Below are positions 1,406 to 64,000 of a stretch of 64,000 bases of DNA, one piece after another; the first letter of the stretch is position 1; the number at the start of each line of letters is the position of its first letter. The notes beneath the pieces were generated by a model. The model was not told the origin of the DNA, did no database searches, and saw nothing but the letters and a program-made list of their open reading frames with translations. The position numbers and the translations under genes are program-made. This DNA comes from Mobula birostris (taxonomy: Eukaryota), in contig NC_092391.1 in the NCBI RefSeq assembly GCF_030028105.1, forward strand, positions 4,995,223 to 5,059,222, in the 5' to 3' direction.

Positions 1406-1650
1406 AGCACAAACGAGAAAATCTGCAGATGCTGGAAATCCAAGCAACATACACAAAATGCTGAAGGAACTCAGCAGACCAGGTAGCATCTATGGAAAAG
1501 AGTACAGTTGATGTTTCAGACCGAGACCCTTCAGCAGGACTGGAGAAGGAAAGACGGAGTAGAGTTAAAAAGTATGGGAAGAGGTAGGAGAAACACAAGG
1601 TGATGGGTGAAACTGGCTGGGAGAGGGGTGAAGTGAAGAGCTGGGAAGTT
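1406..1650 (-). mobile_element. Penelope-like element terminal (pLTR) fragment with degenerate hammerhead
   Basis: Same family as the GIY-YIG-bearing copies; minus strand reads CAGTC-CTGCTGA-A-GGGTCTCGGTCT-GAAACATC-AACTG (1505-1542). Confidence 0.75.
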
Positions 1651-2118
1651 CATTTTCATTGTAACATTAAAGATAATTGGTGATGCCTTAATTCTTTGTA
1701 GTTTCTAACTTGCTGAAGTAGTGAAATCATTTCAGTTTCACTCCTGGCTGTTTCTAGCATTTCCAAGCTTGAATCTGCAGTGAGCACAACAGTTCTGAAT
1801 GATCTTGCTGCTTATTTCTCATCAGCTATCAGTGACTTAAAAGAATCAGTGACTTTTGAACATAAATATCTGCAACTGACACTATTTAAAAACTTTGCTG
1901 TAACCACGGTGTAGTGTCTTAACAGCCACACAGGTGCACACGACTGATGCTGGTTAGAAACTGATTGGCAAATCTCCAGTCCCAACTAAGTGGCATAGTG
2001 TCCCAAATAAGTGAAGGGAGTCCTGGCTATTTTCTCGATTAGTTATTCTTTAAGAGTTTTCTCAAATAAATGGCTGTCCTGATTAACCAATGGCCCAATT
2101 AACTGGAATCCACTCTGT
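1650..2118. mobile_element. Tigger/pogo-like non-autonomous DNA transposon, partial
   Basis: Homologous to 5688-6498; ends in TIR-like ccaattaactggaatccac. Confidence 0.65.
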
Positions 2119-2690
2119 TAGTTAATTGAAGCATTAAGTAAAATTAAGACAAACGCAACACTTGTTAACCTTGATTGAAAGTGAAGGTAACTCTGTTCAA
2201 GTAAGCAAGCTACATGTGTCTGCCATGTAGCCTGTTACAGTCACAGCGCCAGTTACAGCATCATAGAGCTTGTCTGAAGTACTGACTGTTCATCCCTCTC
2301 CATAGAAGCTGTCTGACCTGGTGAGACCCTCCAGCATTTTGTGTGTGTTTCTCTCTCCCACCATCTGTGGCCATGAATTTCACTGATACACCACTCTCTG
2401 GCTAAAGAAATTCCTCCTCATCTCTGTTATAAAGGGATGTCTCTCTATTCTGAGGCTGTGCCCTCTCTAAGCAGAGGTTCCCACTGTTTTTATGGCACTT
2501 ACCATACTGTTGAGCAAGGGGTCTGTGGAACCCAAGGTGGGAACCCTCATCTTCGAGGAAAGACGTGAATACTGAGAGCAAGCATAGACTTGCCAGGCTG
2601 CATAGCCGCCTCCTGTGTAACAAGGAGATGTGAAGTGTTAAAGTTGCATTCATGAGATATTAAAACGTTCTTTTGGATTTTGTTTGACAG

Positions 2691-2801
2691 TGCAGTCCCC
2701 AAAGATAAAGATAAGCAGTGCTTCAAACTCCGACAGGGAGTGGAGAAGAAGATTGTAATATATGTTCAGCAGGTGTCCAACAAGGAGCTCATCATTGAAA
2801 G
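2691..2801 (+). CDS. RABGAP1: RABGAP1 internal coding exon (111 nt, phase 2-2)
   Basis: tttgacAG acceptor, GTacta donor. Translates (S)AVPKDKDKQCFKLRQGVEKKIVIYVQQVSNKELIIE(R), matching the vertebrate RABGAP1 sequence as I recall it; frame continues into the next exon. Confidence 0.95.
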
Positions 2802-4670
2802 GTACTAAGCTGTTAATGCAAATTTTTATTTTAATAAAATAGTTATGTTCAGCTATAATTAACTTGTGGAATTGTTCTGCTTCTAAGAGTACTTCCTGTT
2901 GTTCTGGTTTTGGCATGGTGGTGTGCATTTAAATCTGTTAAGGTGATAGCTGATATCTGAACTCTATTATCAAAGTATGTATACTATATGCAACCTTGAA
3001 ATTCATCTCCTTGCAGGCAGCCACAAAACAAAGAAACCAATAGATAATCCCCATTAGAAAGAAGACCGTCAAATACAAGATGTGCAGGGAAAAAAAATTG
3101 TGCAAGCAATAATAATAAGCAAATAATATTCAGAACTGAAGGTAACGGAAGTGAGTCCACAGCCATGAAGCCAGTCACAACCGATGCAGGGGGCTGTTAT
3201 TGCAGACCACAACCTTAATTCAGTGCAGACAAGTAAACCTTACTGAATAGCAAGCCTGACGCCATCCTGTCCCTCTACTCCGGCCTTGACACCCTTACCT
3301 TTTCATTCTGATCTAGCGCTTAAATCGGCTGAACAGCAAATTGCTCCTTACTCTCGGACCTGGGCCCTGCTGCCTTGATATGCTTTTGGGCCCAGGAGCT
3401 GCCAGCTTGATTTGGCCTGTACCTGCCCTTTGCAAGCTGGCCTGGCACTTAATTTGGTCAAACACTGGCTTCTTCCCCACTCTTGGGCATAGTCCCAGCT
3501 GCCTCAGTTTGCTTCACTTCGGTTCTCTGCTTTGAGTTGGCTCCAAATCCACTGCACAATGGCCAAACATTGGCTTGTTTCTCTATCTCTTCGACCCAAG
3601 CCCCGCTGCCTCGATCTGGCCCATACATACCACATTGCATCTATACCCTCATACTTGTGAGAATTATTTCTTGTTTGTGGTGTTGGAATAAAACTCCCAT
3701 TTGATTCTTTGTGAGATTTGGTACAATTGATCTTTTAGAATTGGGATCTAGACAATTTTCTTGTACTCTTGAGCAGCATTTTTACTGGCACCAGTGAGAG
3801 AATATAAGCCAGTCTGATTTGCGTTGAGAGCTTTGCACAGCAAACTTCTCTCAGGATAGGTCCTACTTTGGCCTTGTCAAAATTAAAATTAAATTGTGTT
3901 CCAAGAGAAGAATATAGAATTTCACCCCAAATCTATGTCTAATACCTAAACTTTTTCTTTAACTGTAAAATGCCATTTCGCAAAAGAATTACCTCTGGGC
4001 TTCTCATTAACTCCTGCATAGTGTTGTACCATACCAGTTGTCTTGGTAATGCTGCATCTGACCTGTTTTATTTCACTTTTCTCTGACACACAGACTTTTA
4101 AAGTTAAACATAAGTTAAGAAAAGAACATCTGGAACAAAGAAGAAGCCTGTCAATAATGAGGAAAACAGGATTCTTTAGATCTATTAAGCTACATTTACC
4201 TTTTCCCAATATTGATCTGTAAATGATTTCCACTTTGTTCCGAAGTTGGATGTTGGAACAGAAGTCTAGGGGGCAGTGTAGTACTATGGGAACATTTGTT
4301 GAGTGGTTGGTTTATTAGTTTCAGCTTACTATTCTGCAGTACGTCCTAATAATTTGCAGAGATCCAGTGATTTTGTTACTGGAACCTTTAGCGCAACAAT
4401 TGACCTTGCTTTCTTGTACCAACAAATACCTCCCACGTGCGTGTCCTCATTAAATCTTTCCAAACTTTTTTCCCCTTTGTATTGCACATTGAAACTCTTT
4501 AGTTATTTCCCTTGAGACTTGATATCGTTTTGTGGAAATCCTCATAGTTTTCGTTAAACTTTTCTCATCATTCCCCGTTGTACCCAAATACCACTCTTAT
4601 ATTTAAGTCTTATTACCATTGTTATCTTCTCAAAATATTTCATGCTCTTTTTAGATTCCTATACTACATT

Positions 4671-5580
4671 AGGGTGATGGGGTGGAGATGCATCTCTACC
4701 AAAGGGGGTGTAAGGCAAGCCTACAGGTCACCTTGGGCAAGGTGTAGCACCTGCTTAGCCCTCCGACCAGGGTCACGTGAAGCCATGTGATCAGGTGGTG
4801 GATGGTCGTATGAGCAGCTGGTGCATATCACAAGTCCTGGTTCTGTGACCACTGACTCCAGGCAGGCAGTCTCTGAAGAGTACAGATTTCCCCCGCTATC
4901 TGAAGGTAGAGCGTTCCTATGAAACCGTAAGCTGAAATGGTGTAAAGCGAAGAAGCAATTACCATTAATTTATATGGGAAAAATTTTTGAGTGTTCCCAG
5001 ACCCAAAATATAACCTACCAAATCATACCAAATAACACACAAAACCTAAAGTAACACTAACATGCGGTAAAAGCAGGAATGATATGATAAATACACAGCT
5101 TATATAAAGTAGAAATAATTATGTACAGTGTAGTTTCACTTAACAGAATCAGGAAGATTGAGCCAAAACAGATTTGTAGAAAAAAAATCGGCACATACAC
5201 GCATACACACGTCACGCACGCGCACGTACACGCATGCGCACACACCTGCCCGAGCAAGGCTTCATGGTCATGGTAGTCTTTCTCAGGGTAAACACAAGTT
5301 TAAAGCGGGCATCTTTTCTCGTAAAAGCGAAAGTCCTCTTTCGGTTAGTGAAAACAGGTACTAATGTAGGTCTTTTGTAAAAGCGAAATGTCATAAAGTG
5401 AACGTTCGAAAGCGGGAGAACACCTGTATTGATAGTGCCTAGGGCCACCCTTCTTGTAAGGACACTCCCCAGAAGAAGGCAATGACAAACCACTTTTGTA
5501 GAACAATTGCCAAGAACAATCATGGTCGTGGAAAGACTATGATCATCTGCATCATATGACATGGCACATAATGAATGAAC
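4671..5580 (+). mobile_element. RTE-tailed SINE-like element, interrupted by a MITE
   Basis: Same family as 33741, 44915, 48541 and 54072; contains the gaagaaggcaatg(g/a)caaaccac motif and a ...ggcacataatgaatgaa tail; split at TA by 4883-5426. Confidence 0.7.
4883..5426. mobile_element. Tigger/pogo-type MITE with TA target duplication
   Basis: TA|cagatttcccccgct ... agcgggagaacacctg|TA imperfect TIRs; removing it restores the host sequence ctctgaagagTAttgat seen in other copies. Confidence 0.8.
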
Positions 5581-5687
5581 ACAGCATTACTGTCAGGTTC
5601 TTTGCTTTCCTATGGCAGCTTTGTAATAATTTTCACCACACTTTCAAATTCTTATTACATCTGAGGAGTTTAAAATTTTACTGAACT

Positions 5688-6498
5688 CAGTGGATTCCGG
5701 TTAATTGGACCGTATCGGGACTGGTTCATTTTGGCCCAATTAAGCGGCTGCTTCATTTAAGCTGAGGTTTCATGAAAATTGTTAAAAAGTTACAAAAAGA
5801 CAAACTACCATTTAACTGAGTAACAACTTATGTATTTAAAAGAAAAATGAGCAAATTAGAACACTATCAATACTACTTACAGTACTATAAAACTGTATTA
5901 GTTATGGACAGAGGAATTCATCCAGTGAACACTAATGTGCTTTTTTCTGATTGACTGTAAATGAACAAAATCAGTGTAGACAATGTAGATAATGGACTGC
6001 CTTCATACAATGTTTTCGACAATTGCATCCTCCAAGTCATCTTTTTCATTGTAACATTGAAGATGCTTGTTGGTACCTTAATTCTTCATAGTACCTAACT
6101 TGCTGAAGTAGTGAAATCATTTAATTTTCACTCCCGACCATTTCTGGCATCTCCAATCTGAATGCTTGAAAACACAGTGAACAAAACAGTTCAGAATTGT
6201 CTAACTGCTTATTTCTCACAAACTATCAGTAGCAAAATCACTGCTTTTCGAACACAAAACGCATGCAACTGACGCTATTTAAAAACTGTTCACTCTAATC
6301 ACTCTGTAATGTCTAATGGCCATGCAAGTGCATGTGACTGACAGAAGTTGTTTGGCAACAGTCTCCTATCCTAATTAAGTAGTATAGTGTCCCAAATAAA
6401 CAAAGAAAATTTTGGCTATTTTCTCAATTTTTGTTGTTTAAGAGTTGGCCAAATAAGCAACTGGCCTGATTGATGGCACAATTAACCAGAATCTATTG
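5688..6498. mobile_element. Tigger/pogo-like non-autonomous DNA transposon
   Basis: TIRs cagtggattccggttaattgg / caattaaccagaatctattg followed by TA; further copies at about 1650, 16670 and 59528. Confidence 0.75.
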
Positions 6499-6670
6499 TA
6501 TTTCATTCATTTTATGAAAAGTTGACAGCAAGTGTGCATTTATTCATGTGAAAATTGTTCTATTGAATTGTACAGTATTACATTGCAAGTAAATATTAGT
6601 GGACTAGTAGTTAATATTATTTAATCTATCCATAATTGTGTTAACATTTCTAGTTGTGTTCTTTCTTAAG

Positions 6671-6737
6671 GTGTTTCGGCCTTCTTCTCAGTCCAGGCAA
6701 AGATGTCCGCAACAGTGACATGCATCTGTTGGATTTG
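6671..6737 (+). CDS. RABGAP1: RABGAP1 internal coding exon (67 nt, phase 2-0)
   Basis: ctttcttaAG acceptor, GTaaga donor; (R)CFGLLLSPGKDVRNSDMHLLDL. GKDVRNSD fits RABGAP1 rather than RABGAP1L. Confidence 0.96.
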
Positions 6738-7400
6738 GTAAGACTTTGGCTCAATAAGCAGCTCCCTTTTTGTTTAGCTTTTCTCCTTACAAAGCTAGAG
6801 TCTGCATAGTTTTAGTTGAAGAATGTTAAATTCATATTATCCAAATTATTCATGGTAAAGTGATGTAATATGTATTTCCTTCCATTTTTAGTCTTTGGGA
6901 GAGTCAAGGGTTATGGGAACTAGAACACAGAAACATAGAAAAGGACAGCACAGTACAGGGCCTTCAACTCGTGATATTCAGCCAATCTTTTGACCTACTC
7001 TACAAGCAATCTAACCCTTCCCTCCCACATAACTCCCCAATTTTTTTTTTCTTTTATCCATGTGCTTATCTAAGAGTCTCTTAAATGTTCCTCATGTATC
7101 TGCATCTACCACCACTCCTGGCAGGGCGTTCCGTGCACCCACCACTCTTTTGTTTAAAAAAAACAACTTGCCTCTGATACCTTAAGGTGTCCTCCAAACA
7201 CCTTAAATTATGCTCCCTTGTATTAGCCATTTGCTCCCTGGGAAAGCATCTCTGACTGTCCACTCGTTCTGCCCCTCTTATCTTGTACACCTCTGTGACG
7301 AGTCCTCTCATCCTCATTCGCTGGTACATAAAAAAAATATGGAATTGCTGCAACATCAGGTATCTGGGACTCTTGCCTTTTATCAGTATGAGTAGAAAGT

Positions 7401-7968
7401 CTGAGCAACACAGACACAATCCTGGAGGAACTCAGTAGGTCAGGCAGCCCCATCATCGGGACTGGAAAGGAAGGGGAAGATGCCAGGATAAGGTGGGGGG
7501 GTGGTAGAGAGTACAAGCTAGAAGGTGATGGGTGAAGCCACGTGTTTGGGGGAGGGGAGATGAAGTCAGAAGCTGGGTGGTGATAGATGGAAAAGGTAAA
7601 GGGCTGGAGAAGGAAGGAATCTGATAGAGGATGGTGAACCATGGGAGAAAAGGAAGGAGGAGGCGTACCAGGGGAGGTGACAGGCGAGTGAGCAGAGCTA
7701 AGAGGCCAGAGTACATAATTGGGAAAGGGAGGGTGGAATACTGGAACAGCCATCAGGCTGGAGGCTACTACCCAGATGGAATATGAGGTGTTGCTTCATC
7801 ATCCTGAGAGTGGCTTCATCTTCACCGGCACGTTGAAATCGGAATGGGGATAGGAATTAAAGTGATTGACCACCCGAAGATCCATCTGTTTGTGGATGAC
7901 ACGGAGGTGCTCAGTAATGCAGTCTGCTAATCTATGTCAGCTCTCACCAATGTAGAGGAGACTGCATC
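7401..7968 (-). mobile_element. Penelope-like retroelement remnant with GIY-YIG endonuclease C-terminal half
   Basis: Manual minus-strand translation gives CSLLYIGES*HRLADCITEHLRVIHKQMDLRVVNHFNSYPHSD, then after a frameshift EATLRMMKQHLIFHLGSSLQPDG. This matches the YIG motif and the EH..HFN..L.P.G.N pattern of PLE endonucleases, followed by a pyrimidine-rich region and the pLTR. Confidence 0.85.
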
Positions 7969-8069
7969 ACTTCAGAGCTTGCATCCGGAGCTCCGTGCAG
8001 CCTCCCCCACCTACCTGTTTCACCTCTTTCCCCACCAATCTGTCTTTTGAGAGAGGACTGTGGCAGTAC

Positions 8070-9190
8070 TTAAGACCATTAGACCATTCAATCATGGCTG
8101 ATCCAATTCTTCCAGTCATCCCAACTCCCCTGCCCTCTCCCCATACCCTTTGATGCCCTGGCCAATTGAGAACCTATCTATCTCTGCCAAATGACTGAAC
8201 TCCACAGCCACTCATGGCAACAAATTCCACAGATTTACCACCCTCTGACTAAAGTAATTTCTGCACATCTCTGTTCTAAATGGATGTCCTTCAACCCTAA
8301 AGTTATGCAGTCTTGTCCTAGACTCCCCTACCATGGGAAATAACTTGGCCGTATCTAATCAGTTCAGGCCTTTTAACATTTGGAATGTTTCTATGAGATC
8401 CCCCCCGCCCCCCCCCCCCCCATTCTCCTGAACTCCAGGGAACATAGCCCAAGAGCTGCCAGACATTCCTCATATGGTAACCTTTTCATTCCTGGAATTA
8501 TTCTAGTGAATCTTCTCTGAACTCTCTCCTATGTCAAAATATCCTTCCTAAAATAAGGAGCCCAAAACTGCACACGATACTCCAAGTGTGGTCTCACGAG
8601 TGCCCTATAGAGCTTCAACATCACATCCCTGCTCTTATATTCTATACTTTTAGAAATGAATGGCAACATTGCATTTGCTTTCTTCACTACCAACTCAACC
8701 TGGAGGTTAACCTTTAGGGTATCCTGCACAAGGACTCACAAGTCCCTTTGCATCTCTTCATTTTGAATTCTCTCCCCATCTAAATCTGCCTATTTATTTC
8801 TGACACCAAAGTGCATGACCGTAAACTTTCCAGCATTGTATTTAATTTGCCTCTTCTTTGCCCAGCCCCCTAAACTATCTAAGTCTGTGTGCAGGCTCTC
8901 TGTTTCCTCAACACTACTTGCTCCTCCATCTATCTTTGTATCATCGACAAATTTAACCATGAATCCATTAATCCCATAGTCCAAATCATTGACATTCATC
9001 ATCAAAAGCAGCGGTCCTAACACCAACCCCTGTGGAACTCCACTAATAACCAGCAGCCAGCCAGAATAGGACCGCTTTATTCCCACTCACTGCTTTCTGC
9101 CGATCAACCAATGTTCCACCCATGCTAGTAACTTCCTTGTAATTCCATGGGCTCTTATCTTGCTAAGCAGCCTTCTGTGTGGTACTTGTC
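8070..9190 (-). mobile_element. CR1 LINE 3' portion (RT C-terminus plus 3' UTR)
   Basis: ORFs 8790..9086 (GVPQGLVLGP, KFVDDTK) and 8529..8729 (LYRALVRPHLEY). Confidence 0.9.
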
Positions 9191-9489
9191 AGCTCAGGAA
9201 ACTTAAGTTGTGGTGAGTTTTTTTTTCAATGGTTACTGCTGCACAGTGGAAAGTATAGTTAGACACTATCATTAGACCTACACCAATAAGGAACTCCAAA
9301 ATAGACATTGGTTTAACTGGCATAATTGATTAGCTGTCACTGGTCAGGTCTGACATAGGTTCATTAACAAAGCATTTCTAAATTTTGAGGAACTCTCTTG
9401 TGTAAATGTTGGGATGCAGAGAGATTTTTAAAGAAAATCCATAACTTGGGAATTCTGTGAAGCATTTTTTAAGTAAAGAAGAGTTGGTT

Positions 9490-10392
9490 TAATGTATAAC
9501 CTAAAAAGAATCGGTCCCAACACAGACCCCTGTGGAAAACCACTAGTCACTGGCAGCCAGCCAGCCAGTAAAGGCTCCCTTTATTCCCACTCTTTGCCTC
9601 CTGCCAATCAGCCACTGCTTTATCCATGCTAGAATCTTTCCATTAAATACCATGGGCTCATAGCTTGTTAAGAAGCCTCATGTGTAGCACCTTATCAAAG
9701 GCCTTCTGAAAATCCAAGTACACAACATCAACCGATTCTCCTTTGTCTGTCTTGCTTGTTATTTCTTCAAAGAATTCCAGCAGATTTGTCAGCAAGATTT
9801 TCCCTTGAGGAAACCATGCTGACTTCAGCTTTTTTTTTATCATGTGCCTCCAAATGCCCCAAAACTACATTCTTAGCAATCGATTGCAACATCTTCCCAA
9901 CCACAGAGATCAGACTTACTGTCCTGTAGTTTCCTTTCTTCTGCCTCCCTCCCTTCTTGAAGAGTGGAGTGACATTTTCCATTTTCCAGTCTTCCAGAAC
10001 CATTCCAGAATCTAGTGATTCTTGAAAGATCATTACGAATGTCTCCATGATCTCGTCAGGCACCTCTTTCAGAACTCTGGGGTGTACACCATCTGGTCCA
10101 GATGACCTGTCTACCTTAAGGCCTTTCAGTTTCCCAAGAATGTTCTCTCTATTTATGGTAACTTAACACACTTTGTGCCTCCGACACCTGGAACTTCCAC
10201 CATACTGCTAGTGTTTTCCACCATGAAGACTGATGCAAAATACTTATTCAGTTGGTCCGTCATTTCGTTGTCCCCCATTACTACCTCTCCAACATCGTTT
10301 TCCAGCGGTCCGATATCCACTCTCGCCTCACTTTTACACTTTATGTATCTGAAGAAACTTTTGGTATCCCCTTTAATATTATTGGCTAGCAT
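9490..10392 (-). mobile_element. CR1 LINE ORF2 internal fragment
   Basis: ORFs containing DVVYLDFQKAFDKV, VTPLFKKGGRQKKGNYR and KSFFRYIK. Confidence 0.9.
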
Positions 10393-10549
10393 ATCCAGTG
10401 CATTTTAGTCCAAACAGGTTGTTGATGATGAAGGTCATGCAAGTAATCTCAGCTTTTGACACTAAAGAACAAAATAAAGCTGACATCAGTGGCTTCATGA
10501 GAGGCCAATGTGGTGTACAACTGATGAACAAATTTTGGGCTGTGGTCAT

Positions 10550-11085
10550 AAGATCATAAGACATAGGAGCAGAATTAGGCCTTTCAGCCCATCAAGTCTG
10601 TTCCACAATTCACTCAAAGCTTATTTGTCATCTCTCTCAACCCCATTCCCTTGCCTTCTCCCTGTAATCTTTGATGCCCTTACTAGCGAAAAATTTATCA
10701 ACCTCCACTTTAGATGTACCCAATAGCTTGACCTTCACAACCATCTCTGGCAATTGATTCTACAGATCCAACACTCTCTGGCTAAAGAAATTCCCCCTCA
10801 TTTGTTACCTAAAGCAATATATTATTCTGAGACTGTGCCCTCTGGTCCTAGACTCTTCCACTATTGGAAACATCCTATTCACATCTATTCTATACCTTTC
10901 AATATTTGATAGATTTCAATGAAATCTCTCATTCTCTTGCATTCAGTCAGTACATGCCCAGAGCCATCAAATACTCTTGATAAATTAACCCAATAATCCT
11001 AGGATCATTCCTGTGAACCTCCTTTGGACACTCCAATGCCAGCACACCTTTTCGTAGATGAGACCCAAAACTGCCCACAATATCC
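10550..11085 (-). mobile_element. CR1 LINE 3' end
   Basis: cataagacataggagcagaattaggc terminus and ctggctaaagaaattcc motif shared with other CR1 copies. Confidence 0.8.
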
Positions 11086-11227
11086 AGTCTAACCTGGGAT
11101 GAAAGTGTCACATTTTGCTGTTAGGATATCCAGCAACCTCCTAGAAACAATGATGGGTAATGGCAAGGCTGTCTGTTCTGGTGATTTTGATTAAAGGATG
11201 AATGTGGAAAACTATGGATAGAATTCC

Positions 11228-11630
11228 TAAACACAGGAGATTCTGCAGACGCTGGAAATCTTGAGGAACACACTCAAGGTGCTGGAGGAACTCAGCATGT
11301 CAGGCTGGAAATGAATAAACAGTTGCTGAGATCCCCATCAGTACTGGAAGGGAAGAGGGAAGATGCCAGAATAAGAAGGTGGGGGAGGGAAGGAGTACAA
11401 GCTAGAAGATGATAGGTGGGTGTGAAAGGTTAAAGGGCTGCAGAAGGAATCTGATAGAAAAGGAGGGTGGACCATGGGAGAAAGGAAAAGAGGAGAGGTG
11501 CCAGTGGAGGTGATAGGCAGGCGAGGAGAAGAGGTAAGAGGCCATAGTGGGGAATAGAAGAAGAGGGAAGAGGAGGGGAGGAGAAAAATGAAAATAAAAA
11601 ATACTGTGAGGTGAAACCAATGTTCATGCT
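11228..11630 (-). mobile_element. Penelope-like element 3'/pLTR fragment
   Basis: gctggaggaactcagc family; ends near an MNIGF-coding segment equivalent to the MN(I/V)(D/E) end of the PLE ORF. Confidence 0.75.
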
Positions 11631-11984
11631 GCTAATATTCCTAATTCTTGCAGACAATGTCTTAACTGCAGAGAGTGAGACTTGTATGTTCTTTCTAAAT
11701 AGGAAGAGAGAGGTATTGAAGTCATCTGGATCAAAGGATAATCTGATTAACTAACTGACACCAGAAACAAATGATAGCTGGCAGACTGTCATTTAATAAT
11801 TTAACTAGTCATTAAGGAGAGAAATTTGGTTTCCATCAGATAATGGTACTTGACGCTTGCAATCTTGTTCTGCACAGTTAAGTATGAACAGCAAACTTGC
11901 TCTGGCCGAGGCCAGCTGTGCCCTTTGAACTGGTTTAAATGTAAAGCTTATAAAAATTTGAAAAATTAATTTCACATTGGGTTC

Positions 11985-23025: not shown

Positions 23026-23027
23026 AA

Positions 23028-50337: not shown

Positions 50338-50437
50338 GGGCATCACAGTACCATAGAGGTTAGCACACTGCTATTACAGCTTGGAGTGTCAGAGTTCAAA
50401 TCCAGTGCTGTCTGTAAGGAGTTTCTATGTCCTTCTC

Positions 50438-50481
<44 letters not shown>

Positions 50482-52430: not shown

Positions 52431-52464
52431 AAGAAAAAGATGAAAATAAGCTTGAAAATGACAT

Positions 52465-53781: not shown

Positions 53782-53983
53782 CATGGTTCCCTCTAAGCTG
53801 CACGGGTGCGTGGCTGCACAGTAACTGAAATGCTCCCCAGACATAGCCGTTGTCGCCAAGCTGCTGGAATTTTTTATATAATGCTGATATGAAGTGCTGT
53901 GCAGTTTTCAAGCCATGTAAAAATTTCTTGCTCAGAGCAATGGTGGGTCCACACAGCTGTAAAACAAATTAGAGGGAACATTG
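53782..53983. mobile_element. hAT MITE with perfect 8-bp TSD
   Basis: ATTAGGAG at 53774-81 and 53984-91; TIRs catggttccctctaa / ttagagggaacattg (13/15 match). Confidence 0.88.
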
Positions 53984-54391
53984 ATTAGGAGGATTCAGCA
54001 GAGAAAGTGTAGTTTCTGATCTCTTTTCCTGAGTTATTTCTTGAAATCCACTTATAACTACAGTGCTCTAGTTGCTGATGCCAGGCAGACTTTCTCTGAA
54101 GAGTATTGATAATGGCTGGGGTCACCTGTCTTGTAAAGACTCTGCCCAGAGGAAGACAATGGCAAACCACTTATGTAGAAAAATTTCCAAGAGCAATTAC
54201 GGTCAAAGACCACAATTACCCATGTCGTGTAATATGGCACATAATGAACTCTCTGTGTGTGTATTTGTGTTATGGATCCTTTTCCATCCATGGAAGAAGA
54301 AGTGGGGTGGGGTGGGGGGAAGAACCACCAGAGGGAGGCGATGGGTGAGCAAAGAAATAACATGAGAGGGGGACAAGGGGATGGGAAATGG

Positions 54392-54745
54392 TGTACTTTT
54401 TCCATAGATGCTGCCTGGCCTGCTCGGTTCTTCCAACAGTTTGTGTGACTCCTAACCCCCCCCCCCCTCGCCCCATGGCCTCCTTCACCAATCAACTTCC
54501 TAGCTCTTTGCTTCATCCCTCCCCCTCCAAGTTTCACCTATCTCCTGGTGTTTCTCTCTCCCCTTCCCCCACCTTTCAAATCTACTCCTCAGCTTTTCTT
54601 CCCCCCCCCCAGTCCTGCCAAAGGATTTCAGCCTGAAACGTCAACTGTACTTTTTTCCATAGATGCTGCCTGGCCTGCTGAGTTCCTTCAGTATTTTGTG
54701 TGTGTTGTTCAGGTTTCCAGCATCTGCACTTTTCCCTTGTTTGTA
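54392..54745 (+). mobile_element. Penelope-like element with partial tandem pLTR duplication
   Basis: tgtacttttt(t)ccatagatgctgcctggcctgct occurs at about 54392 and again at about 54646. Confidence 0.75.
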
Positions 54746-54934
54746 TTTTTAAAACAATGCATTCCCTTTGCCATTAAAGAGTGCCCCAGCGAAGTTAGCC
54801 AGACTTTCCTTTTGAAAACCCTTTTAGAGTTCATCAAATACATTATGCAGAATTTCGGAGCAATTTTGCCAAATGATTTTGGCAATCAAGTTACAAATTT
54901 GTAATCAAGAGGAAAAGGATTTATTAAAAATCAT

Positions 54935-55372
54935 GTTACACACATCAAAGTTGCTGGTGAACGCAGCAGGCTAGGCAGCATCTCTAGGAAGAGGTACAGT
55001 CGACGTTTTGGGCTGAGACCCTTCGTCAGGACTAACTGAATGAAGAGTTAGTAAGAGATTTGAAAGTGGGAGGGGGAGGGGGAGATCCAAAATGATAGGA
55101 GAAGACAGGAGGGGGAGGGATGGAGCCAAGAGCTGGACAGGTGATTGGCAAAAGGGATATGAAAGGATCATGGGACAGGAGGCCCAGGGAGAAAGAAAAG
55201 GGGGAGGGGGGGAAACCCAGAGGATGGGCACGGGGTATAGTGAGAGGGACAGAGGGAGAAAGGGGGGGGGAGAGAGAGAGAAAGAATGTGTGTATATAAA
55301 TAAATAACAGATAGCATACGAGGGGGAGGTGGGGCAGAAGTTAGAGAAGTCAATGTTCATGCCGTAAGGTTG
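54935..55372 (-). mobile_element. Young-subfamily Penelope-like element 3' part
   Basis: Minus strand QPYGMNIDFSNF (end of PLE endonuclease ORF), pyrimidine-rich region, hammerhead motif, tail ccagcaactttgatgtgtg. Confidence 0.85.
54998..55033 (-). ncRNA. Minimal hammerhead motif, G12->A variant (probably inactive)
   Basis: AGUC-CUGACGA-A-GGGUCUCAGCCC-AAAA-C-GUC-GACU; stem I is perfect. Confidence 0.55.
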
Positions 55373-55811
55373 CAGTTTGGAAACTAGACGTGCATTAAAA
55401 AGTAGCAGAATTGTACTGTACTTGTAATTTATCTGTATTTTTGTATTTTATGTTTTGCCTTTTGCACATTGCTTACTGGTGAGTCTTTGTGTATAGGCTT
55501 CATTGATTCTATTGTATTTCATTATTCTACTGTGAATGCTTGCAAGAGGATTAGGGCGGCATGGCACCGTTGCAGTTAGCACATCACTTTACAAATCCAG
55601 CAACCCGGGTTCAATTCCCACCTCTGCCTGGAAGGAGTTTGTACATTCTCCCTGCCAACATGTGGGTTTTCTCCGGCTGCTCTGGTTTCTTCCCAATGGG
55701 TCACTGCAGATTGTCCTATGATTAAGCTAGGGTTAAATTTGGGTTGTTATATCTCAGTAAATGAATCTCAGGGTGGTATATGGTGACATATACATTGATA
55801 ATAAATTTACT

Positions 55812-55975
55812 CTGAGCAACACACACAAAATGCTGATGAACGCAGCAGGCCAGGCAGCATCTATAGGAAGAGGTACAGTCGACGTTTTGGGCTGAGACCT
55901 TTCGTCAGGACTAACTGAAAGAAGAGATAGTAAGAGATTTGAGAGCGGGAGGGGGAGATCCAAAATGATACGAGA
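55812..55975 (-). mobile_element. Penelope-like pLTR with hammerhead motif (55877-55912)
   Basis: AGUC-CUGACGA-A-AGGUCUCAGCCC-AAAA-C-GUC-GACU. Confidence 0.8.
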
Positions 55976-57169
55976 TAAGGTGTTGTTTTGTACTCCACCT
56001 TCCGGGGTGATTAATGGAGTTACCATTATATGTTGAAGAATGATTGTTCTCACTGTATTTGTATGAAATTAGCAGTTTGATAGGAATTGTGGATTTATTT
56101 AAATCAAATGCTTTATAGGGATGGAACACTTGAATTTATTAAACTAGTAATCCAGAGGCCTGGATTATTAAAGAATCATTACATCTGTCCAAATGCCCCC
56201 ATGGCAACTATAGATCTTACTCCCGTTGTTTAATAATAGACTCATCACAGTACTGCCATGTTGTAAAAGCTTATTTTGGCAATTGACTGTCCTCCACAAC
56301 ATGTACAATCCAGGGGCAATTTAACAAGTCAGACAGCAGCATCTGTGAAGGGAAGTAAATATTTGACATTTCAGGCCAGGATTCTTCATCAGGACCCAAC
56401 GTGTGAGGCTGGCCTCTTGTTCTGTTCCTTGGCAATGTGCATGACTCTTCATCGAAGCAATATTGGTTAATAGGTTTAGTGCTGTCACATGTACTGAGGT
56501 ACAGTGAGAAACTTTGCATACAGTTCATACAGATCAATTCATTACGACACTGCAGGCCTTTTAACACAAATACCTTTTAACCAGTAATGGATAAATAGTT
56601 CAAGGGTGATGGGCCAGAGCCAGCATAAGGGTGCTCATGATAAAATGCTCATGTTCTGAAGACAAAAAAAAAATCACCGTGAATTCAGGACTTGCTTTTT
56701 CCTTTAATTTAAAACTTTATAATTGTGAAAATCCTACCTTTAATACTAGGTTTGAATGAAACATTTTCCTTGATATTCTTTCTATAGCCTCTGCAACTAA
56801 TGAAGGCGTTTGATACAGAGTTGTTTTGTTCACAGTACTAATGGTTGGATAATCTATGTGGTGAAAAGCGAAAAAAAAAAATACCCTCTTGGAAATCTGA
56901 AAAAATCACAGAAAATGCTGGGGATTCTCTGCAGCTCAGACAATGTTTGTGGGGAGAGGAACACCATCAACCAGGGTTGATTTACCCATTACTAGTTTAA
57001 AGGAGTTTGTGTTTAAAAAGCCCACAATGTTGTAATGAATTGACGTGTATGAACAGTATTCAAGACAAGTTGCTCTTTGTACCTCGGAGCATGTGACAGT
57101 AACAGCTGTAGGTCTGAGGGTTAAATACTGACCAGGACCCCTCCCCTTTTTCAGTGAGTCCCTCCTTAA

Positions 57170-57742
57170 GTCACTCTCAAAGCAGATGCTGAGGCTTTAT
57201 ATAGCATTGGTTAGACTACACTTGAATATTGTGAGCAGTTTTGGGCTCCTTATCCTAAAAGGTATGCTGCCTTTGGAGAGGGTTGAGAGTAAGTTCACAA
57301 GAATGATTCCAGGAATTGAAATGGTTAACATATGAGGAGAGTTTGATAGCTCTGGGCCTGTACTCACTGGAGTTTACAAGACAAAGGGAGGGGTCTCATT
57401 GAAACTTATCAAATTTTGGAAGGCCTTGATAGAGTGGATGTGGAGATGATGTTTCCTATTATGGGGAGTCTAGGACCAGAGGGTATCCATTTAGAACAAA
57501 GATTAGGAGGAATATCTTTAGTCAGAGGGTGGTGAATCTGTGGAATTCATTGCTATAGACAGCTGTAGATGTCAAGTCATTAAGTATAGTTAAAGCAGAT
57601 GTTAATAGGTTCTCGATTAGTAAGGGCATCAGAGGTTATGGGGAGAAGGCAGAAGAATGGGCTCGAGAGAGATAATAAATCGGTCATGAGGGACTCGATG
57701 GACAGAGTGGCCTAATTCTGCTCCTATTCCTTGTGCCTTATG
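57170..57742 (+). mobile_element. CR1 LINE 3' end
   Basis: Decayed LYIALVRLHL...FWAPY coding region and cctaattctgctcctatt tail. Confidence 0.8.
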
Positions 57743-58319
57743 ACAGTTGGGCGTTGGTTTTCATACCTCATCCACTGATGCCATTGGCTTTTCTGTGCAG
57801 GGTTGTCACATGAGTAATAGTAACGTGACAAGTACAAGATATGCTCAGCCTCCTGGAATGGGACAGCCTGTGACAGATTCACATGCATTGCAGCTGAAGT
57901 TTAAAGCTTTTCCAGTTACTGTAAAAGTTGACAACATTGAGTCTGCTTTAAAATGTGCATTGCTTAGATATCAGAGCTCAGTTTATAAATGCATGAAAGA
58001 ACTCACTAATGTATGCAGCGTACTCATTTGCATTGGTGTAATTCACTTGTGTGAGAACCAGTATAACATGCCAACAGATTGTAACAATGATTAAACATAA
58101 TTTTGTAATTGTCACTGAGAGATTATCTCAACTCTGCCACAGTTGTCATCAGGCACAGAGGGTTCATTAATTGCCGGGCCACAATACTGAATTATCTGCC
58201 AGAGTTGGGGATTGGTCATTACTGCCAGCTGATTGGAGCTATAAGAAGTATCTCTACTTTGCTCATTTCCTTAGACATAAGAGGCAATATTTCACTACAT
58301 TTTACTTAAGTCCATAATC

Positions 58320-59255
58320 ATATGTCATAGGAACAGAATTAGGCCATTCAGCCCATCAAGTCTGCTCCACATGCCATCATGGCTGATTTATTATCTCCTT
58401 CATCCCCATTCTCCTGCCTTCTTCCCATAAACTTTGATGCCCTGACTAATCAAGAACCTCTCAACGTCTGCTTTAAATATACCCAATAACTTGGCTTCCA
58501 CAGCCATCTGTGGCAATGAATTCCATAGATTCACCACCCTCTAGCAAAAGAAATATCTCCTCATCTCTGTTCTGGCAGCTTGTCATTGTATTCAGAGGCT
58601 GTGTCCTCTGGTCCTAGACTCTCCCACTATAGGAAATATCCTTTCCCAGTCCACTCCATCTGTCCTTTGAATATCAGAATTGGGTATAATATCATTAGCA
58701 AGTGCCGTGAAATTTATTTTGTAGCCACAGTACTTTGCAATACATAATAAAAACTATAAATTGCAGTAAGAAGTACTCATTCAGCAATCTGGTGGAGCGG
58801 AAGAAGCTGTTCCTAAAAGGTTGGGTGTGTGTTTTCAGGCTCCTGTACCACCTCGTTGATGGTACAATGAAAAGAGAGCATGTTCTAATGATGGTTGCTG
58901 TCTTTTTGAGTTATCGCCTTTATAAAATGTCCTCAATACTGGGGAAACGAGTGCCTGTGATGGAGCTGGCTCAGTTTACAACTTTTTGCAGCTTTTCCTG
59001 ATCCCGTGCAGTGGCCCCTCCATACCGTTTTTCATATCAACATTCTATATCATATTGGATAGGTTTCTATTTCAATATTGATTCCATAATCAGCATTTGA
59101 AAGGTTTCAATGAGATCCACCCTCATTCTTCTAAGCTCCAATGAGTGCAGGTCTAGAACCATCAAACGCTCCTCATGTGTTAATCCTTTTATTCCTGGTG
59201 CCATTGTCATGACCCCCTCTGGACTCTTTCCAATGCCAACACAACTTTTCTTAGG
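58320..59255 (-). mobile_element. CR1 3' end split by a Rex1-type insertion (about 58675-59030)
   Basis: cataggaacagaattaggcc terminus; resumes at about 59075 with HEERLMVLDLHSLELRRMRVDLIETF. Confidence 0.72.
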
Positions 59256-59527
59256 TGAAGAGCCTGCGTGCAAGTAACTGTTTGTGCACGTAGCTGCTGA
59301 AACGTGATAGAATATTTTCTGCTGCTCCCATGGTAGAAGTGAAGGGTGAAGCAGCAATGAAAGAGATGGATCTACTTTTACAAATTCTACTACAAAGTGA
59401 ATGTGACCCGGTAGCTAGCAGTTAGCGCATCACTTTACAGTGCCTGCAGTTCCTGCCATTTTGTGTAAGAAGTTTATATGTTCTCCCCGTGACTGTGTGG
59501 GTTTTCCTCTGTGTGCTTATCGACACC

Positions 59528-60049
59528 ATCGGGACCAGTACATTTTGGCCCAATTAGCTGAAGTTTAATACCTTTACAGTACAATAAAGCTGTATTAGTC
59601 CCTAATAGGTGTTGACGGAGAAATTCATCTCCTGTGTTTGATTAACTGTAATTCTTAACTTGTTGAAGTAGTGAAGTTGTTTCATTTTCACTCCAGGCCA
59701 TTTCTGACATCTCCAAGCTTGAATGCTTGAAACTGTAGTAAGCAACACAGTTCTGAATTGTCTTAATGCTTATTTCTCGCCAAATAACAGTGACAAAAAT
59801 CACTGCTTTTTGAACACAGCACATGCTATTTAAAAACTGTTTGCTCTGAGCATGGTGTGGTGTCTAATGTCCACGCAAGTGCTCGTAACTGACGCCAGTT
59901 AGAAACTTTTCAGCAACAGTCTTCTTCTCCAAGAGAACAGCGTAGTCTCTCAAATAAACAAAAGGAATCTCGTCTAATTTCTTGATTTAGTTTTTGTTCT
60001 TTGAGTTGTCCCAAAATAAACGACTGTCCCAATTAAATAGAATCCACTG
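59528..60049. mobile_element. Tigger/pogo-like non-autonomous element, internally deleted
   Basis: Homologous to 5688-6498; ends aatccactg|ta. Confidence 0.7.
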
Positions 60050-60532
60050 TATTTGTTCTATAAAACCAACAACTAGACTATAACTTCTACATTAAAAAAA
60101 TTAAAATTGTCTTGCTGATAGATCATTTTTTTCCCTATCTGTTTCATCAAACTCGTCTGTTTAAAGCCCTAAACTTTATGTATTGTATTTTTCTATTGTC
60201 CGTGTGCTTATCTAAGAATTTCTTAAATATCCTTAATGTATCTGCCTCTACCCCCACCCTTAGCAGGGCATTCCATGCACCTACTACTTCAAATTCAAGT
60301 TTGTTTATTGTCATTCAACCATACACCAGGAACAAAACCAGGATCTTCAGGGACTGAGGTGCAAAACACAGTAGGTATAGAACATACAGCACATAAAATA
60401 ATAACAATAAAAAAGTATTTTGTAGATATACAAGTTGACATGGTAGTGTACTGGTTAGCACAATGCTTTATAGTACCAGTGAGTAGGGTTAAATTCCCGG
60501 AGCTTCCTGTAAGGAGATTGCATCTCTCTGTA

Positions 60533-60572
60533 ACAGTCCTGACGAAGGGTCTCGGCCCGAAACGTCATCTGT
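60533..60572 (+). ncRNA. Minimal type I hammerhead ribozyme motif, best-preserved catalytic core in the window
   Basis: CUGACGA (60539-45), A, stem II GGGUC/GGCCC, GAAA (60559-62), C-GUC with predicted cleavage 3' of 60566. Stem I ACAG/CUGU has two core-proximal mismatches. Confidence 0.7.
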
Positions 60573-60632
60573 ACCTCTTCCTAGAGGTGCTGCCTGGCCT
60601 GCTGCGTTCACCAGCAACTTCTATGTGTGTTG
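60538..60632 (+). mobile_element. 95-nt Penelope-derived insertion with 14-bp TSD
   Basis: CTCTCTGTAACAGT is identical at 60524-60537 and 60633-60646. Confidence 0.88.
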
Positions 60633-61524
60633 CTCTCTGTAACAGTATGGGTTTCCTCTGGGTGCTCTGGTTTCCTCCCACCTTCCAAAGCTGTACTGTT
60701 GGTAAGATAATTGGTCCTTGCAAACTGTCCTATAATTGGCCTAGGGTTAAATTGGGGGTTTGCTGCATCGTGCGGCTGGAACGGCCTGTTCTGTGCTGTA
60801 TTTCAATAAACAAATTGACATAAGTACACCTAGTTAAATATACAACAGTATTACTGCTACTGGCCCTGTCATAAATAATGTGTTCTGGGTGAAAGCAAAG
60901 TTCAAAAGTCTCACAGCCTGGGGTAAGGAAGAAGCTGTTACCCAGCCTAGCTGTCCTTGTTCTTGTATGGTGGTATCTTCTACTTGGTGGCAGGAGGTCA
61001 AAGAGGTCGTGGGTTGGATGGGAAGTGTCCTTGACTATGCTGAGGGCTCTGCGAATGGCAGTCCTGATGTATGTCCTGGATGGGGGGGGTGGGGGGTGTG
61101 AGGGAGACCCCCTATGATTCTCTCAGCAGGCCTTCTGTTCCTTTGCTGGATCATGAAGTATGTCTGCTCTCTCAGGCGGTACTTCTTCAAAGGGAAAAGT
61201 GGGCATTCTCTCTGAGCTCCTAATATTTATCTCAGTCGTCGTTCTGCTCATTATCACTTTGCTGTAGTGAGAGTTTGCACTGTGCAAATTGACTGCTGCA
61301 CTTCCTGAAACAGCAGCTTTTCAAAAGCACTCAAGGACATCCTGAGAAGGTGTAAAATATCAGGCACTTTTACTTTCTATTTATTCCAAACAGTAAGGCT
61401 GCAGTTTTATTTTGAACCTGATAATTAAGCACATGACCAGTAATACCCCGTTTCTTAAGGAGCAGATTGACAACAGGGAATATGCAGACTGAGAATCAAA
61501 TTGTACACAGTCTTTATCACCTTT

Positions 61525-62005
61525 TCAAGATTCAAGATCGTTTAATACGATTCCCAGTACAAAAATGTAAAAGAGAATGAAATTATTATTACTCGAGCTG
61601 ATGCAGCACAAAAAATTCACACACTAAGATAAAGGACACAATAGATATATATGTATAACTTAGTTTCTATGCATAGATTGATTGTATGTCCATAAAGTGA
61701 CACTAGGCACAGGTGTATCAGTACTTAAAGTGACTGACAGGAAATGATAAAGTGGTGGTGGTTGGGGAAAGGAGGGTTAGTGGGTGGAGGTGTTGATCAG
61801 CCTACTGCTTGGGGAGAGTAACTGTTTTGAAGTCTCGTAGGCCAGGTGTGGATGCTACGTAGCCTCCTCCCTAATGGGAGAAGGACAAACAGTCCATGAG
61901 CAGGGTGGGTGGGATCCTTCATGATGTTACTGTACCTTTTCCAGCACCTTTCTGTACTTCTGTGCTAGATGGTGGCTAGGCTGCTGCTGGTAATGCATTG
62001 GGCAG
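61525..62005 (-). mobile_element. Rex1-type LINE 3' end, subfamily also at about 46915-47130 and 63140-63395
   Basis: ttcaagattcaagatcgtttaat terminus; decayed KDPTHPAHGLF.LLP.GRRLRSI coding region. Confidence 0.65.
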
Positions 62006-62574
62006 TGCATAAATGGGAGAAAAAAAGCAATTTTGATTCAAAAAATGGTCAGATCTTTTCAGAATAATTCTCTGATTAACTTTATATTTGCTCTGCCAGC
62101 CAGTTAATTTAACATGTAGTACTTAAAGGCATCAGGATTGGAATGGCCAAACTTGGTGTCATCTGTTCACTGTGATTCAAGGTCATTCCATCAATGTGTT
62201 GCAACTTTTAAAGTCTTTAACCACATACAACCTGTTAACAAAGTGTGCTTATGTCACCATCTACTGCCTTAACATACATTTTTATGAAAAAAATCCTTTG
62301 GAATTTACAAAAAAAATCTATGCATAAACAGGCAAAGATTGACAAACAACCAAAGTGCAAAAGAAGACAAACTGTGCAAATAAAAATAATACTGGAACAT
62401 GAGTTGTAAAGTGTCTTTGAAAGTGAGTGTAGGTTCTGCTCTGGTTTCCTCCCACAGTGCAATTGGTGATTGTCCTGTGATTAGGCTAGGCGTAAATCGG
62501 TGGGTTGTTGGGCAGCGTGGCTCAGTGGCGTGGAAAGGCCTGTTAAGTGCTGTATCTCTAAATGTAATTTTTTA

Positions 62575-63117
62575 AACTCAGCAGGCTAGGCAGTATCTAT
62601 AGAGCGATGTTTCGGGTCAAGACACCTCACCATGACTCTGCATCTGCACTGATGAAGAATCTTGGCCTGAAACCATACGACCATAAGATATAGGAGCAGA
62701 ATTAGGCCATTTGGCCCATTGAGTCTGTTCCACCATTTCATCATGGCTGATCCAATTTTCCTCTCAGCCCCAATTGGCTACTGTATCCCTTCATGCCCTG
62801 AGCAATCAAGAATCTATCAATCTCTGCCTTAAGTATACATAAGGACTTGGCCTCCACAGTTGCCTGTATGAACAAATTCCACAGATTCACCACTCTCTGG
62901 CTAAAGAAATTCCTCCTCATCTCCGTTCCAGAAGGACACCCCTCTATTCTGAGGCTGTGTCCTCTGGTCTGATACTCTCCCATCATAGAAAACATCCTCT
63001 CTGCTTCCACGTTGACTGTTTATTCCTCTCCATTGATGCTGCCTGACCTGCTGAGTTCCTCCCAACATTTTGTGTGTTACTCTGAATATCCAGCATCTGC
63101 AGAATCTTCTGTGTTTG
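62575..63117. mobile_element. Inverted pair of Penelope-like pLTR fragments; the + copy is split by CR1
   Basis: Minus copy at 62575-62636; plus copy CTGATGAagaatcttggcctGAAAC (to 62673) resumes as gttgactgtt at 63011. Confidence 0.75.
62674..63010 (-). mobile_element. CR1 LINE 3' end
   Basis: ORF 62741..63010 contains TRGHSLRIEG...RRNFFSQRVVNLWN; ccataagatataggagcag terminus. Confidence 0.88.
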
Positions 63118-64000
63118 ATAGGAAGATTAGCTTGATTCAGGATTCAAGATCGTTTAATATCATTTCCAGTGCACAAGAGTAAAGGAGACGAAATAATTGT
63201 TACTCTGGATCTGATGAAGCCCAAAAAAAAATAAGATGAGGACACAATAATAAAAAAAACATAGTAGATATAAACACATAAGATAGCTTATATGCATAGA
63301 TTGATTGTATGTCCATAAAGAGATGCTAAGGCACAAGGATGTCTGTAAATAAGGTGACTGACAGGAAATGATAAAGTAGTGGTGGTTTGGGGTGTGGTAC
63401 ATGATATTTTAAAAATAGTATTGAAATAGATGATCTTTCAAATTTTTGTTAAGTAGTTTCTCAGTAATTTAGTAGAAAATGGAATGTCAGAGTTTGGTAT
63501 GTCTCATGTGAATATTTGAATTCCCTTCAGCTAAGTCTAAATAAATTTATTATCACAGTGCGAATATGTTACCGTATTTTTCCTAGAGATTCATGAACTT
63601 TACCTGCTGACAAGACAGTAATGTTGGTCAGTGTTGTACAGAACATACAGTGAGCTGACCACAGAGGATTTAAAGTTATCCAATACCAAATGAGGAAAAT
63701 GACCGATAGCTTTTCCTAGATGCTGCCTGGCCTGCTGAGTTCCTCCAGCATTTTGTGTGTGTTGCTCGGATTTCCAGCATCTGCAGATTTTCTCTTGTTT
63801 GCTTCGGCCACTAGACGTTAGTGGTTAGCACAGACTTAGGATTGTAGTCTTATAGAATTGAATTTATGCTTTCATCTTTATATTCCTTGGCAGGTAGCAG
63901 GAGGGCCACACAGCCCTATAGTTTTATCAGGTTGTTGGTGATACAATCATAAATTAAGTATCAGTATAGAGAGGAGGGCTTTGGGGAGGACTAAGAAGAA

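Follow-up and report, generated by a model that had tools for sequence, protein, structure and literature searches.

The window analyzed here, a 64,000-nucleotide stretch of Mobula birostris (contig NC_092391.1, positions 4,995,223 to 5,059,222), lies within the gene RABGAP1 and carries many dispersed copies of one repeat. Our results indicate that these repeats are very probably 5'-truncated insertions of a Neptune-type Penelope-like element (PLE), whose pseudo-long terminal repeat (pLTR) contains a minimal type I hammerhead ribozyme (min-HHR), and that the copies in the window are decaying and likely no longer cutting. Min-HHRs from truncated PLEs are a known kind of sequence; what adds to it here is a subfamily whose core position 6 is C in place of A (A6C), the pattern of 5' ends and the copy number.

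Repeats in RABGAP1 and their parent element

To count the repeats, we used an iterated profile made from six natural window copies, which found 27 copies between 1422 and 63787 (12 on the plus and 15 on the minus strand) and none in the reversed window. This confirmed the initial annotation of this DNA, which had placed dispersed repeats with a hammerhead motif in RABGAP1 introns. The host gene was identified by its top match (98%, named RABGAP1) and is read from the plus strand. The window carries exons for residues ~304-598, and the flanking stretches encode residues 1-309 and 600-914; with RABGAP1 exons on both flanks, the whole window is intragenic. Copies within RABGAP1 showed no strand bias (42 sense versus 48 antisense, p 0.6).

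The PLE origin that the initial annotation had proposed was also supported, and the short copies are sequence-continuous with an autonomous element encoding a reverse transcriptase (RT) and a GIY-YIG endonuclease. The repeat lay 3' of the open reading frame (ORF) in 10/10 best RT matches, which established its linkage to an RT/GIY-YIG frame, and in the long copies recovered by RT searches it was found ~300 nt past the stop codon. At 20 loci picked with the window copy at 54935-55372, homology faded upstream, and the longer copies reached the GIY-YIG and RT regions. Three window copies had been linked to GIY-YIG coding remnants. Two of these links stood when a natural PLE frame was used in tblastn (7749-7966, E 3e-13; 31285-31436, E 1e-11), but the third, at 55334-55375, amounted to the last ~14 codons only (E 9e-4), in a copy whose DNA matches a long copy at 87% identity across 454 nt.

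A natural complete unit (L146; G000:C16, ~43,236,296-43,240,145, minus strand) contains a 1,116-codon stop-free frame, with its first methionine at codon 28, flanked by two identical motif-complete min-HHRs that lie 3,735 nt apart; a partial tandem precedes the unit. The 3,735-nt unit, which is repeated head to tail, consists of the cut site, a tail, ~140 nt, the ATG, the RT/linker/GIY-YIG frame, a ~300-nt untranslated region (UTR) and the min-HHR. Its translation includes the motifs DKG, YIDD, CKRNRCYTC and GVIYCVRCSRCGLLYIG, the endonuclease has the arrangement GIY-CXXC-YIG, and a Pro/Ser-rich repeat region of ~200 aa lies N-terminal to the RT.

As judged from sequence, the element is a C-terminal endonuclease-bearing (EN+) PLE of the Neptune/Nematis type by the definitions of Craig et al. 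(10.1101/2021.04.23.441226). L146 has the single ORF with RT followed by a C-terminal GIY-YIG with CCHH; partial tandem pLTRs, each with a hammerhead, were seen in ~3.7-kb units at L146, L069 and L072; and copies showed the optional 30-40 bp tail, the inverted 5'-truncated partner and target-site duplications of variable length. Between RT and endonuclease is the CX(2-5)CXXC linker, a Neptune-clade feature, in the CX4CXXC form CKRNKCYTC or CKRNRCYTC; this linker is common to Neptune and Nematis. No named reference elements were among the homologue matches of the PLE frame. For RABGAP1 and the element alike, the top homologues come from rays and sharks. Relatives of the element were found in other rays (up to 91-94%), sharks (~70%) and marine invertebrates (~50%), and contigs from other organisms had the same sharp 3' boundary of the repeat.

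Two annotated ray proteins, P0145 and P0168, whose names are those of kinase-domain and chitinase-domain isoforms, align with the PLE frame across 50-60% of the query, and the PLE sequence in these gene models reflects either misannotation or exonization. A 371-codon open frame that adjoins a PLE copy (L009:62-1174) presumably resembles a Tc1 transposase.

The hammerhead motif and the A6C subfamily

The motif has the layout that was first described. Stem I is CAGTC/GACTG, with TAGTC replacing CAGTC in the young subfamily, the core is CTGANGA and the triplet is GUC; the motif also includes one unpaired A, a stem II of 4 bp that ends in a 4-nt loop, GAAA and a loopless AC/GU. The single consensus given in the initial annotation represents a real motif, but it merges at least three subfamilies, one of them with C at core position 6. 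We searched with a min-HHR descriptor that demanded the two core boxes, a minimum of 4 bp in stem I and 3 bp in stem II, pairing at 15.2-16.2, and UH. At the master level, subfamilies A and C contain the core CUGANGA/GAAA/UH, the stems and the palindromic 15.2-16.2, and as judged by these features they are also members of the min-HHR class. No window copy matched the full descriptor, and in a position-by-position list each of the ~15 window copies that span the motif had at least one core or stem lesion. As to how many cores are intact, motif-complete copies are numerous genome-wide and absent from the window. Rfam returned no hammerhead family, either for the window (E up to 1) or for the complete unit and its two motif-complete copies (E up to 10), which we attribute to a gap in the library and do not count as evidence against hammerhead identity.

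Inserted copies decay neutrally, fastest at CpG, with no purifying selection on the inserted cores. The departure from the commonest letter in non-CpG core versus tail columns was 3.7% versus 3.1% in subfamily A and 7.8% versus 8.9% in subfamily C. At CpG sites (G8, G12, 15.2/16.2, C17/1.1 and the loop), 9-36% of copies differed, versus 3-9% at tail columns.

The master lineages were compared with distant relatives. Among 80 metagenome loci with related ORFs, the descriptor found 12 matches (0 in reversed sequence); six of the 12 were on the same strand as the ORF and 99-136 nt past its end, with 35 loci having at least 300 nt after the ORF. In distant relatives whose ORF is ~43-50% identical, the core, the unpaired A, G10.1-C11.1 and ACGU were kept, and stem I was wholly different yet paired. 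Seven of the 12 metagenome matches were aligned with three ray copies. In this alignment of 10 motifs the core, the unpaired A and ACGU were invariant, 91% of cells were paired versus 20-43% in slid controls, and both sides had changed in 6/9 pairs, so that the proposed stem covariation was upheld for stem I across distant relatives. Because the core is invariant and 6/9 pairs change on both sides, the motif appears to be under selection in the master lineages. Other hammerhead-like motifs near metagenome PLE relatives (L200:120-165, L237, L264) have the palindromes AGCU, CAGCUG and CCGG.

In modeled monomer folds, the core nucleotides G5-G8 are predicted to pair with C15.2-C17, and the minimum-free-energy z-scores of the motif were unremarkable (-0.3 to -1.8). 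Co-folding predicted an extended duplex and no hammerhead dimer; folding says nothing either way on an active dimer.

Clustering of the 170 copies with near-full coverage, out of 282, separated young subfamily A (43 copies), subfamily B (12) and older C-type groups (31), and left 84 unclustered. Core position 6 was A in 41/43 subfamily A and 29/30 subfamily C copies, and in clustered B it was C in 11/12 and T in 1; the A that a min-HHR requires at this position is lacking in subfamily B only. The 29 nearest other loci to B were retrieved with a query that ends before the motif. All were 3' of GIY-YIG remnants, and C was found in 27 of the 28 with a letter at position 6, the remaining one having T and none A. 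In the random genome sample described below, 9/116 cores start with CTGC, which corresponds to ~50,000 genome-wide (23,000-94,000). The flanks of 15 exact C6 matches that were fetched, read by eye, assigned 13 to subfamily B and 2 to subfamily A.

Subfamily B is of intermediate age, between old A6 and young A6. In a tree of endonuclease ends, the C6 copies form a star with tips of 0.06-0.10, with 0.18-0.28 for old A6 and <0.01 for young A6. The tree left out 54 of 83 segments, all young; C6 monophyly is weakly supported (60/88), and at this support young A6 copies may or may not descend from the C6 group. In contigs of four runs, from four organisms, that were aligned to a copy of subfamily B, every other letter stayed below 5% at position 6, while the neighboring base varied. 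This suggests that C6 copies also exist in those four organisms, missing rows being no proof.

A natural A6C hammerhead with low activity is described, in the part of the report concerned, from the phage Bcep176 (PMC3088659), and, according to the corresponding part of PMC7151607, another hammerhead into which A6C was placed cut, at 0.3 mM metal ion, >10,000-fold faster with Mn2+ than with Mg2+. Bcep176 and the ray have the same C at core position 6; the phage case is a single motif, whereas here a whole animal retrotransposon subfamily carries it in a minimal, dimer-type ribozyme. By analogy with these hammerheads, A6C would likely cripple normal Mg2+ self-cutting in subfamily B. Since the A6C-core subfamily was amplified, full-strength Mg2+ cleavage was likely unneeded for its spread. 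Elements with A6 could have mobilized subfamily B in trans, in which case its ribozyme would still have acted in cis on the RNA of B. In the papers searched, neither this ray family nor a retrotransposon with A6C is described, though listing in repeat libraries or supplements is possible, and the piling up of 5' ends at the 5' edge of a ribozyme is likewise unreported there.

Abundance, insertion ends and competing explanations

Copies were sampled in 73 fixed 10-kb stretches (730 kb) of the chromosome-scale contigs of the 4.01-Gb genome. The sample contained 178 copies, 118 of which span the motif, and 19 descriptor matches, 18 of them family members (0 in reversed sequence). The very high copy number proposed initially was therefore supported, as the scaled genome total is ~0.98 million copies (Poisson 0.84-1.13 million, clustering ignored). 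Scaled descriptor-complete copies number ~99,000 (59,000-156,000), and G10.1-C11.1 and C17 were both present in only 4/19 descriptor matches. Exact whole-genome counts gave 29,379 for one 33-nt pattern and 38,817 motif-complete copies for a 34-nt pattern that allows loop and wobble variation, with 0 for the controls of each.

In 42 young copies the 3' ends were at +67 to +75 (16 copies), at +100 to +108 (17) or elsewhere (9). These two end sites, ~70 and ~103 nt past the predicted cut, are ~34 nt apart, a spacing that identifies them as the PLE tail signature, as in the relevant part of PMC11167929. The 5' ends vary by the nucleotide, from -2926 to +33 relative to C3, and pile up at the 5' edge of the ribozyme, away from the cut site. 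Starts in young copies were within -18 to +19 of C3 in 23/47, with a cluster at -8 to +7, and 0/47 were at +20 to +67, the run-off range expected of cut RNA; across all 282 copies, the ten profile columns that surround the cut contained 9 starts and showed no peak. Target-site duplications of at least 7 nt were found in 8/11 stand-alone short copies versus 4/110 mismatched pairs, and they span 7-14 nt; because of these duplications, the stand-alone short copies are insertion events and not deletions. Adjacent pairs among the 282 copies were head to head in 51 cases, same-strand in 15 and tail to tail in 10. About a third of copies have a head-to-head partner, and 16/38 young copies have an inverted one. 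No microsatellite target preference was seen in the junctions inspected. One locus (L283; G000:C1:3,182,850-3,183,190, minus strand) contains two motif-complete min-HHRs on one strand, 202 nt apart, in nested insertions, and is a natural candidate for a cis dimer.

For the anole PLE, the sections of PMC11167929 concerned explain the two-site tail signature by internal RT starts, and state that its hammerhead needs protein and is dispensable for insertion in vitro. By analogy, the PLE protein of the ray would nick DNA, and reverse transcription would begin internally at one of the two tail sites. RT would then copy back through the uncut ribozyme and stop or switch strand mostly within ~20 nt of its 5' edge, which may give rise to mini-copies of 100-140 nt, and only rarely would it continue as far as the ORF. 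Cutting would be confined to master transcripts, where the ribozyme would need to form a dimer (through the palindromic AC/GU) or to be assisted by the element's protein. For a lone intronic copy the predicted fold is an inactive hairpin, and its CpG-rich core is lost by mutation.

A variant of this explanation, which differs in one step, is that the mini-copies are run-off ('strong-stop'-like) cDNAs, the pile-up marking a transcription start just upstream of stem I with no RT stall. We consider it possible but doubtful. Within the unit, the tail occupies the 5' end, directly ahead of the ORF; in the anole PLE, by the account given in PMC11167929, RT begins internally near the ORF start; and the 5' ends do cluster at -8 to +7. 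The whole cluster, however, is ~40 nt wide and some starts are inside the core. Strand switching ends many short copies, as the inverted partners of young copies indicate, which stalling fits equally well.

It is improbable that the short copies form a separate nonautonomous family resembling short interspersed elements (SINEs) or retrozymes, in which a small, perhaps circular, ribozyme RNA is mobilized by the PLE protein. About half of the young copies do start at most 20 nt from the 5' edge of the motif, but the 5' ends are scattered at single-nucleotide steps and merge gradually into those of long copies. The short copies also bear target-site duplications of their own, and along the unit coverage falls from ~70 at the 3' end to 0-4 in the 5' half, as such a family would predict; short and long copies nevertheless have common subfamily diagnostics, and the A6C subfamily is also linked to GIY-YIG. 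A preprint, in the part concerned, derives animal non-LTR retrozymes from pLTRs, one of them chondrichthyan (10.64898/2026.07.22.740005). In the ray, however, the motif is minimal, unlike the canonical hammerhead of retrozymes, and none of the 26 tandem arrays of period at least 45 in a 994-kb sample overlapped the repeat, nor did any TRF array in the window. Monomers cut at both ends would start at +28, where no young copy does. The motif-plus-tail region of one natural copy contained no match to an RNA polymerase III (Pol III) A or B box. The distinct SINE- or retrozyme-like family that the initial annotation had suggested was thus not supported: SINE membership, with a fixed 5' head and a Pol III promoter, failed on the variable 5' ends and the missing boxes, and membership of the non-LTR retrozymes, with tandem hammerhead-bearing units of 150-450 bp, failed because no array overlapping the repeat was found in the window or the 994-kb sample.

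Still less probable, to the point of being very unlikely, is that the host has retained the intronic copies as ribozymes for cutting or regulating the pre-mRNA of RABGAP1. Motif-complete copies are abundant in the genome, and one of them, a fully canonical min-HHR (L143:2521-2558), has the sense orientation in an intron of RABGAP1 that follows the window; chance same-strand pairs such as the two copies at L283 also occur. On the other hand, the window has 0 motif-complete copies, the core columns decay at the neutral rate, there is no strand bias, and the portion of PMC4209133 concerned reports single min-HHRs without cleavage.

Several observations weigh against our preferred explanation of the repeats as truncated Neptune-type insertions with a min-HHR. 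The Pfam matches of L146 (RVT_1, E 2.9e-5; GIY-YIG, E 0.0011) are both under the curated cut-offs, and the Neptune clade is suggested for the ray element by its linker motif. The covariation set is partly circular, as the descriptor demands stem I pairing, though the position of the motif past the ORF and the shared extras are outside the demands of the descriptor; among the ray subfamilies, stem changes are one-sided only. The youngest A masters have U11.1 in 12/12 long copies (G-U or shifted A-U) in place of the conserved G10.1-C11.1. Exact C6 motifs number 555 genome-wide, only ~2x the per-letter background (G6+T6 = 483), which speaks against an A6C subfamily; the low count fits B being old and CpG-decayed. 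Finally, the pile-up of 5' ends at the motif exceeds what random truncation would give and would be compatible with a short template dedicated to such copies.

We tentatively suggest, at lower confidence than the PLE origin itself, that the motif may be mainly a folded RNA or RNA/protein signal that halts or redirects RT and mass-produces insertions of 100-140 nt, with cleavage optional, protein-rescued or metal-gated. This suggestion includes that the A6C subfamily, with its ~50,000 insertions, would occur in several related species and that new copies would never stop at the cut site.

Window copies, known systems and implications

The principal window copies and the RABGAP1 exons (+ strand; approximate tblastn bounds) are as follows.

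near 2656-2802, 6669-6737, 20572-20685, 29102-29270, 31445-31621, 35350-35445, 42755-42874, plus: RABGAP1 coding exons
1422..1644, minus: subfamily B (A6C core) copy; 3' UTR to ~1644; motif 1542-1505
7393..7966, minus: old copy with GIY-YIG remnant (7749-7966), 3' UTR, motif lost after A9 (copy 7393-7475), tail
30867..31436, minus: old subfamily C copy with GIY-YIG end (31285-31436), UTR, decayed motif, tail
38632..38757, minus: short subfamily B copy, A6C core; start within stem I; motif 38752-38715
48060..48193, plus: subfamily C copy; core boxes intact; CpG-type changes break stems and AC/GU
54385..54728, plus: tail fragment and subfamily B copy; motif 54610-54647 with A6C and G8A
54935..55375, minus: young subfamily A copy with last ORF codons, ~300-nt UTR, short tail
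55808..55975, minus: young subfamily A copy with G10.1A and G12A
60535..60634, plus: ~100-nt young mini-copy; start in stem I, end at the +68 tail site
62574..62674: degenerate head-to-head pair, junction at the motif
63672..63787, plus: copy with motif lost, long tail intact
within 2269..63104: remaining decayed copies, starting at 2269, 11242, 12502, 13343, 13690, 14455, 17940, 20067, 28088, 31732, 52623, 56271, 56887 and 63009

In the copy at 54935..55375 (motif 55034-54997), G12A is the sole lesion. The mini-copy at 60535..60634 has a target-site duplication on both sides, with up to 14 nt in common; its motif (60534-60571) has an intact core and two broken core-proximal pairs in the 3' strand of stem I. 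The truncated 5' end of the antisense PLE copy at 30867..31436 comes within ~30 nt of a RABGAP1 splice acceptor, on its upstream side (31416-31445), and may overlap the branch-point region. The mini-copies at 60535 and 38632 sit inside copies of a second abundant short repeat family (D16, D18, D19), probably a SINE, found at 22861-22962, 29391-29477, 30410-30511, 46253-46354, 53393-53447, 55609-55695, 59453-59507 and 60636-60695. The other large repeat family of the window consists of long interspersed element (LINE) 3' ends (8116-8785, 10553-10898, 23079-23778, 35752-36504, 38973-39680, 58317-59212), which we take from their appearance to be CR1/L2-like. A GC/CpG-rich 28-nt minisatellite (13.6 copies, 90% matches) occupies 27617-27997 in a RABGAP1 intron, and reading frames at 41059-41805 (minus strand) presumably belong to a remnant resembling a Tigger/pogo transposase.

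Massive dispersal of single min-HHRs from truncated vertebrate PLEs has been described (Cervera and De la Pena 2014, PMC4209133), and the sections concerned report that dimers of such motifs are cleaved weakly. The ray motif is of the same kind as the min-HHRs of Xena, Poseidon and Neptune presented there: type I with a short stem I, an unpaired base between 9 and 10.1, G10.1-C11.1 and a palindromic 15.2-16.2 without loop 3. The motifs are likewise mostly dispersed and single, with some close together on opposite strands and a few in both pLTRs of complete elements. They differ in stem II, which has 4 bp here versus 7-8 in the S. mansoni families, and in the core, where the U11.1 (youngest) and A6C subfamilies stand against U3-A8, the only core variant in the part of that report considered. 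In number, 38,817 exact and ~1e5 descriptor matches here compare with ~4,000 in coelacanth and ~9,000 in Xenopus, counted by differing methods; the canonical retrozymes of axolotl reach 120,000 in the figures of PMC7229834 concerned.

Compared with Neptune EN+ PLEs as presented in the relevant part of Craig et al., the ray element, placed by motifs, has the same ORF plan and linker, the same partial tandems, inverted 5'-truncated partner and 30-40 bp optional tail, and a hammerhead in the pLTR; the ~200-aa region before the RT and, in the junctions inspected, the lack of a microsatellite target preference set it apart. The Poseidon element of Anolis, PAc (Frangieh et al. 2024, PMC11167929), as far as the account considered goes, has the same two tail-spaced 3' sites downstream of the hammerhead near the ORF start, and likewise no sign of cut RNA as the main template. 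It belongs to another clade, Poseidon lacking the linker zinc finger, and its ATG is at stem II, whereas the first in-frame ATG is ~140 nt past the cut site here. Non-LTR retrozymes, as described in the portions concerned of PMC7229834 and of a preprint by Li et al. (2026), are similar in their type I hammerhead, PLE relationship and short noncoding copies. Theirs are tandem 150-450 bp units, typically with canonical hammerheads, expressed as circles, whereas the ray copies are dispersed monomers or head-to-head pairs.

Altogether, these results indicate that ~1 million of the dispersed repeats of this 4-Gb genome represent 3' ends of PLEs that are invisible to Rfam, and that at least 38,817 motif-complete min-HHRs are tolerated, including in sense in introns. 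The A6C subfamily, which stands beside older and younger A6 subfamilies, offers a new handle on the role of the PLE hammerhead, testable with 40-nt RNAs. If the motif does act mainly as a signal to RT, no core variant of this kind would have been described from animal retrotransposons before the A6C subfamily, and the ray lineage would be a natural experiment on why PLEs keep a hammerhead.

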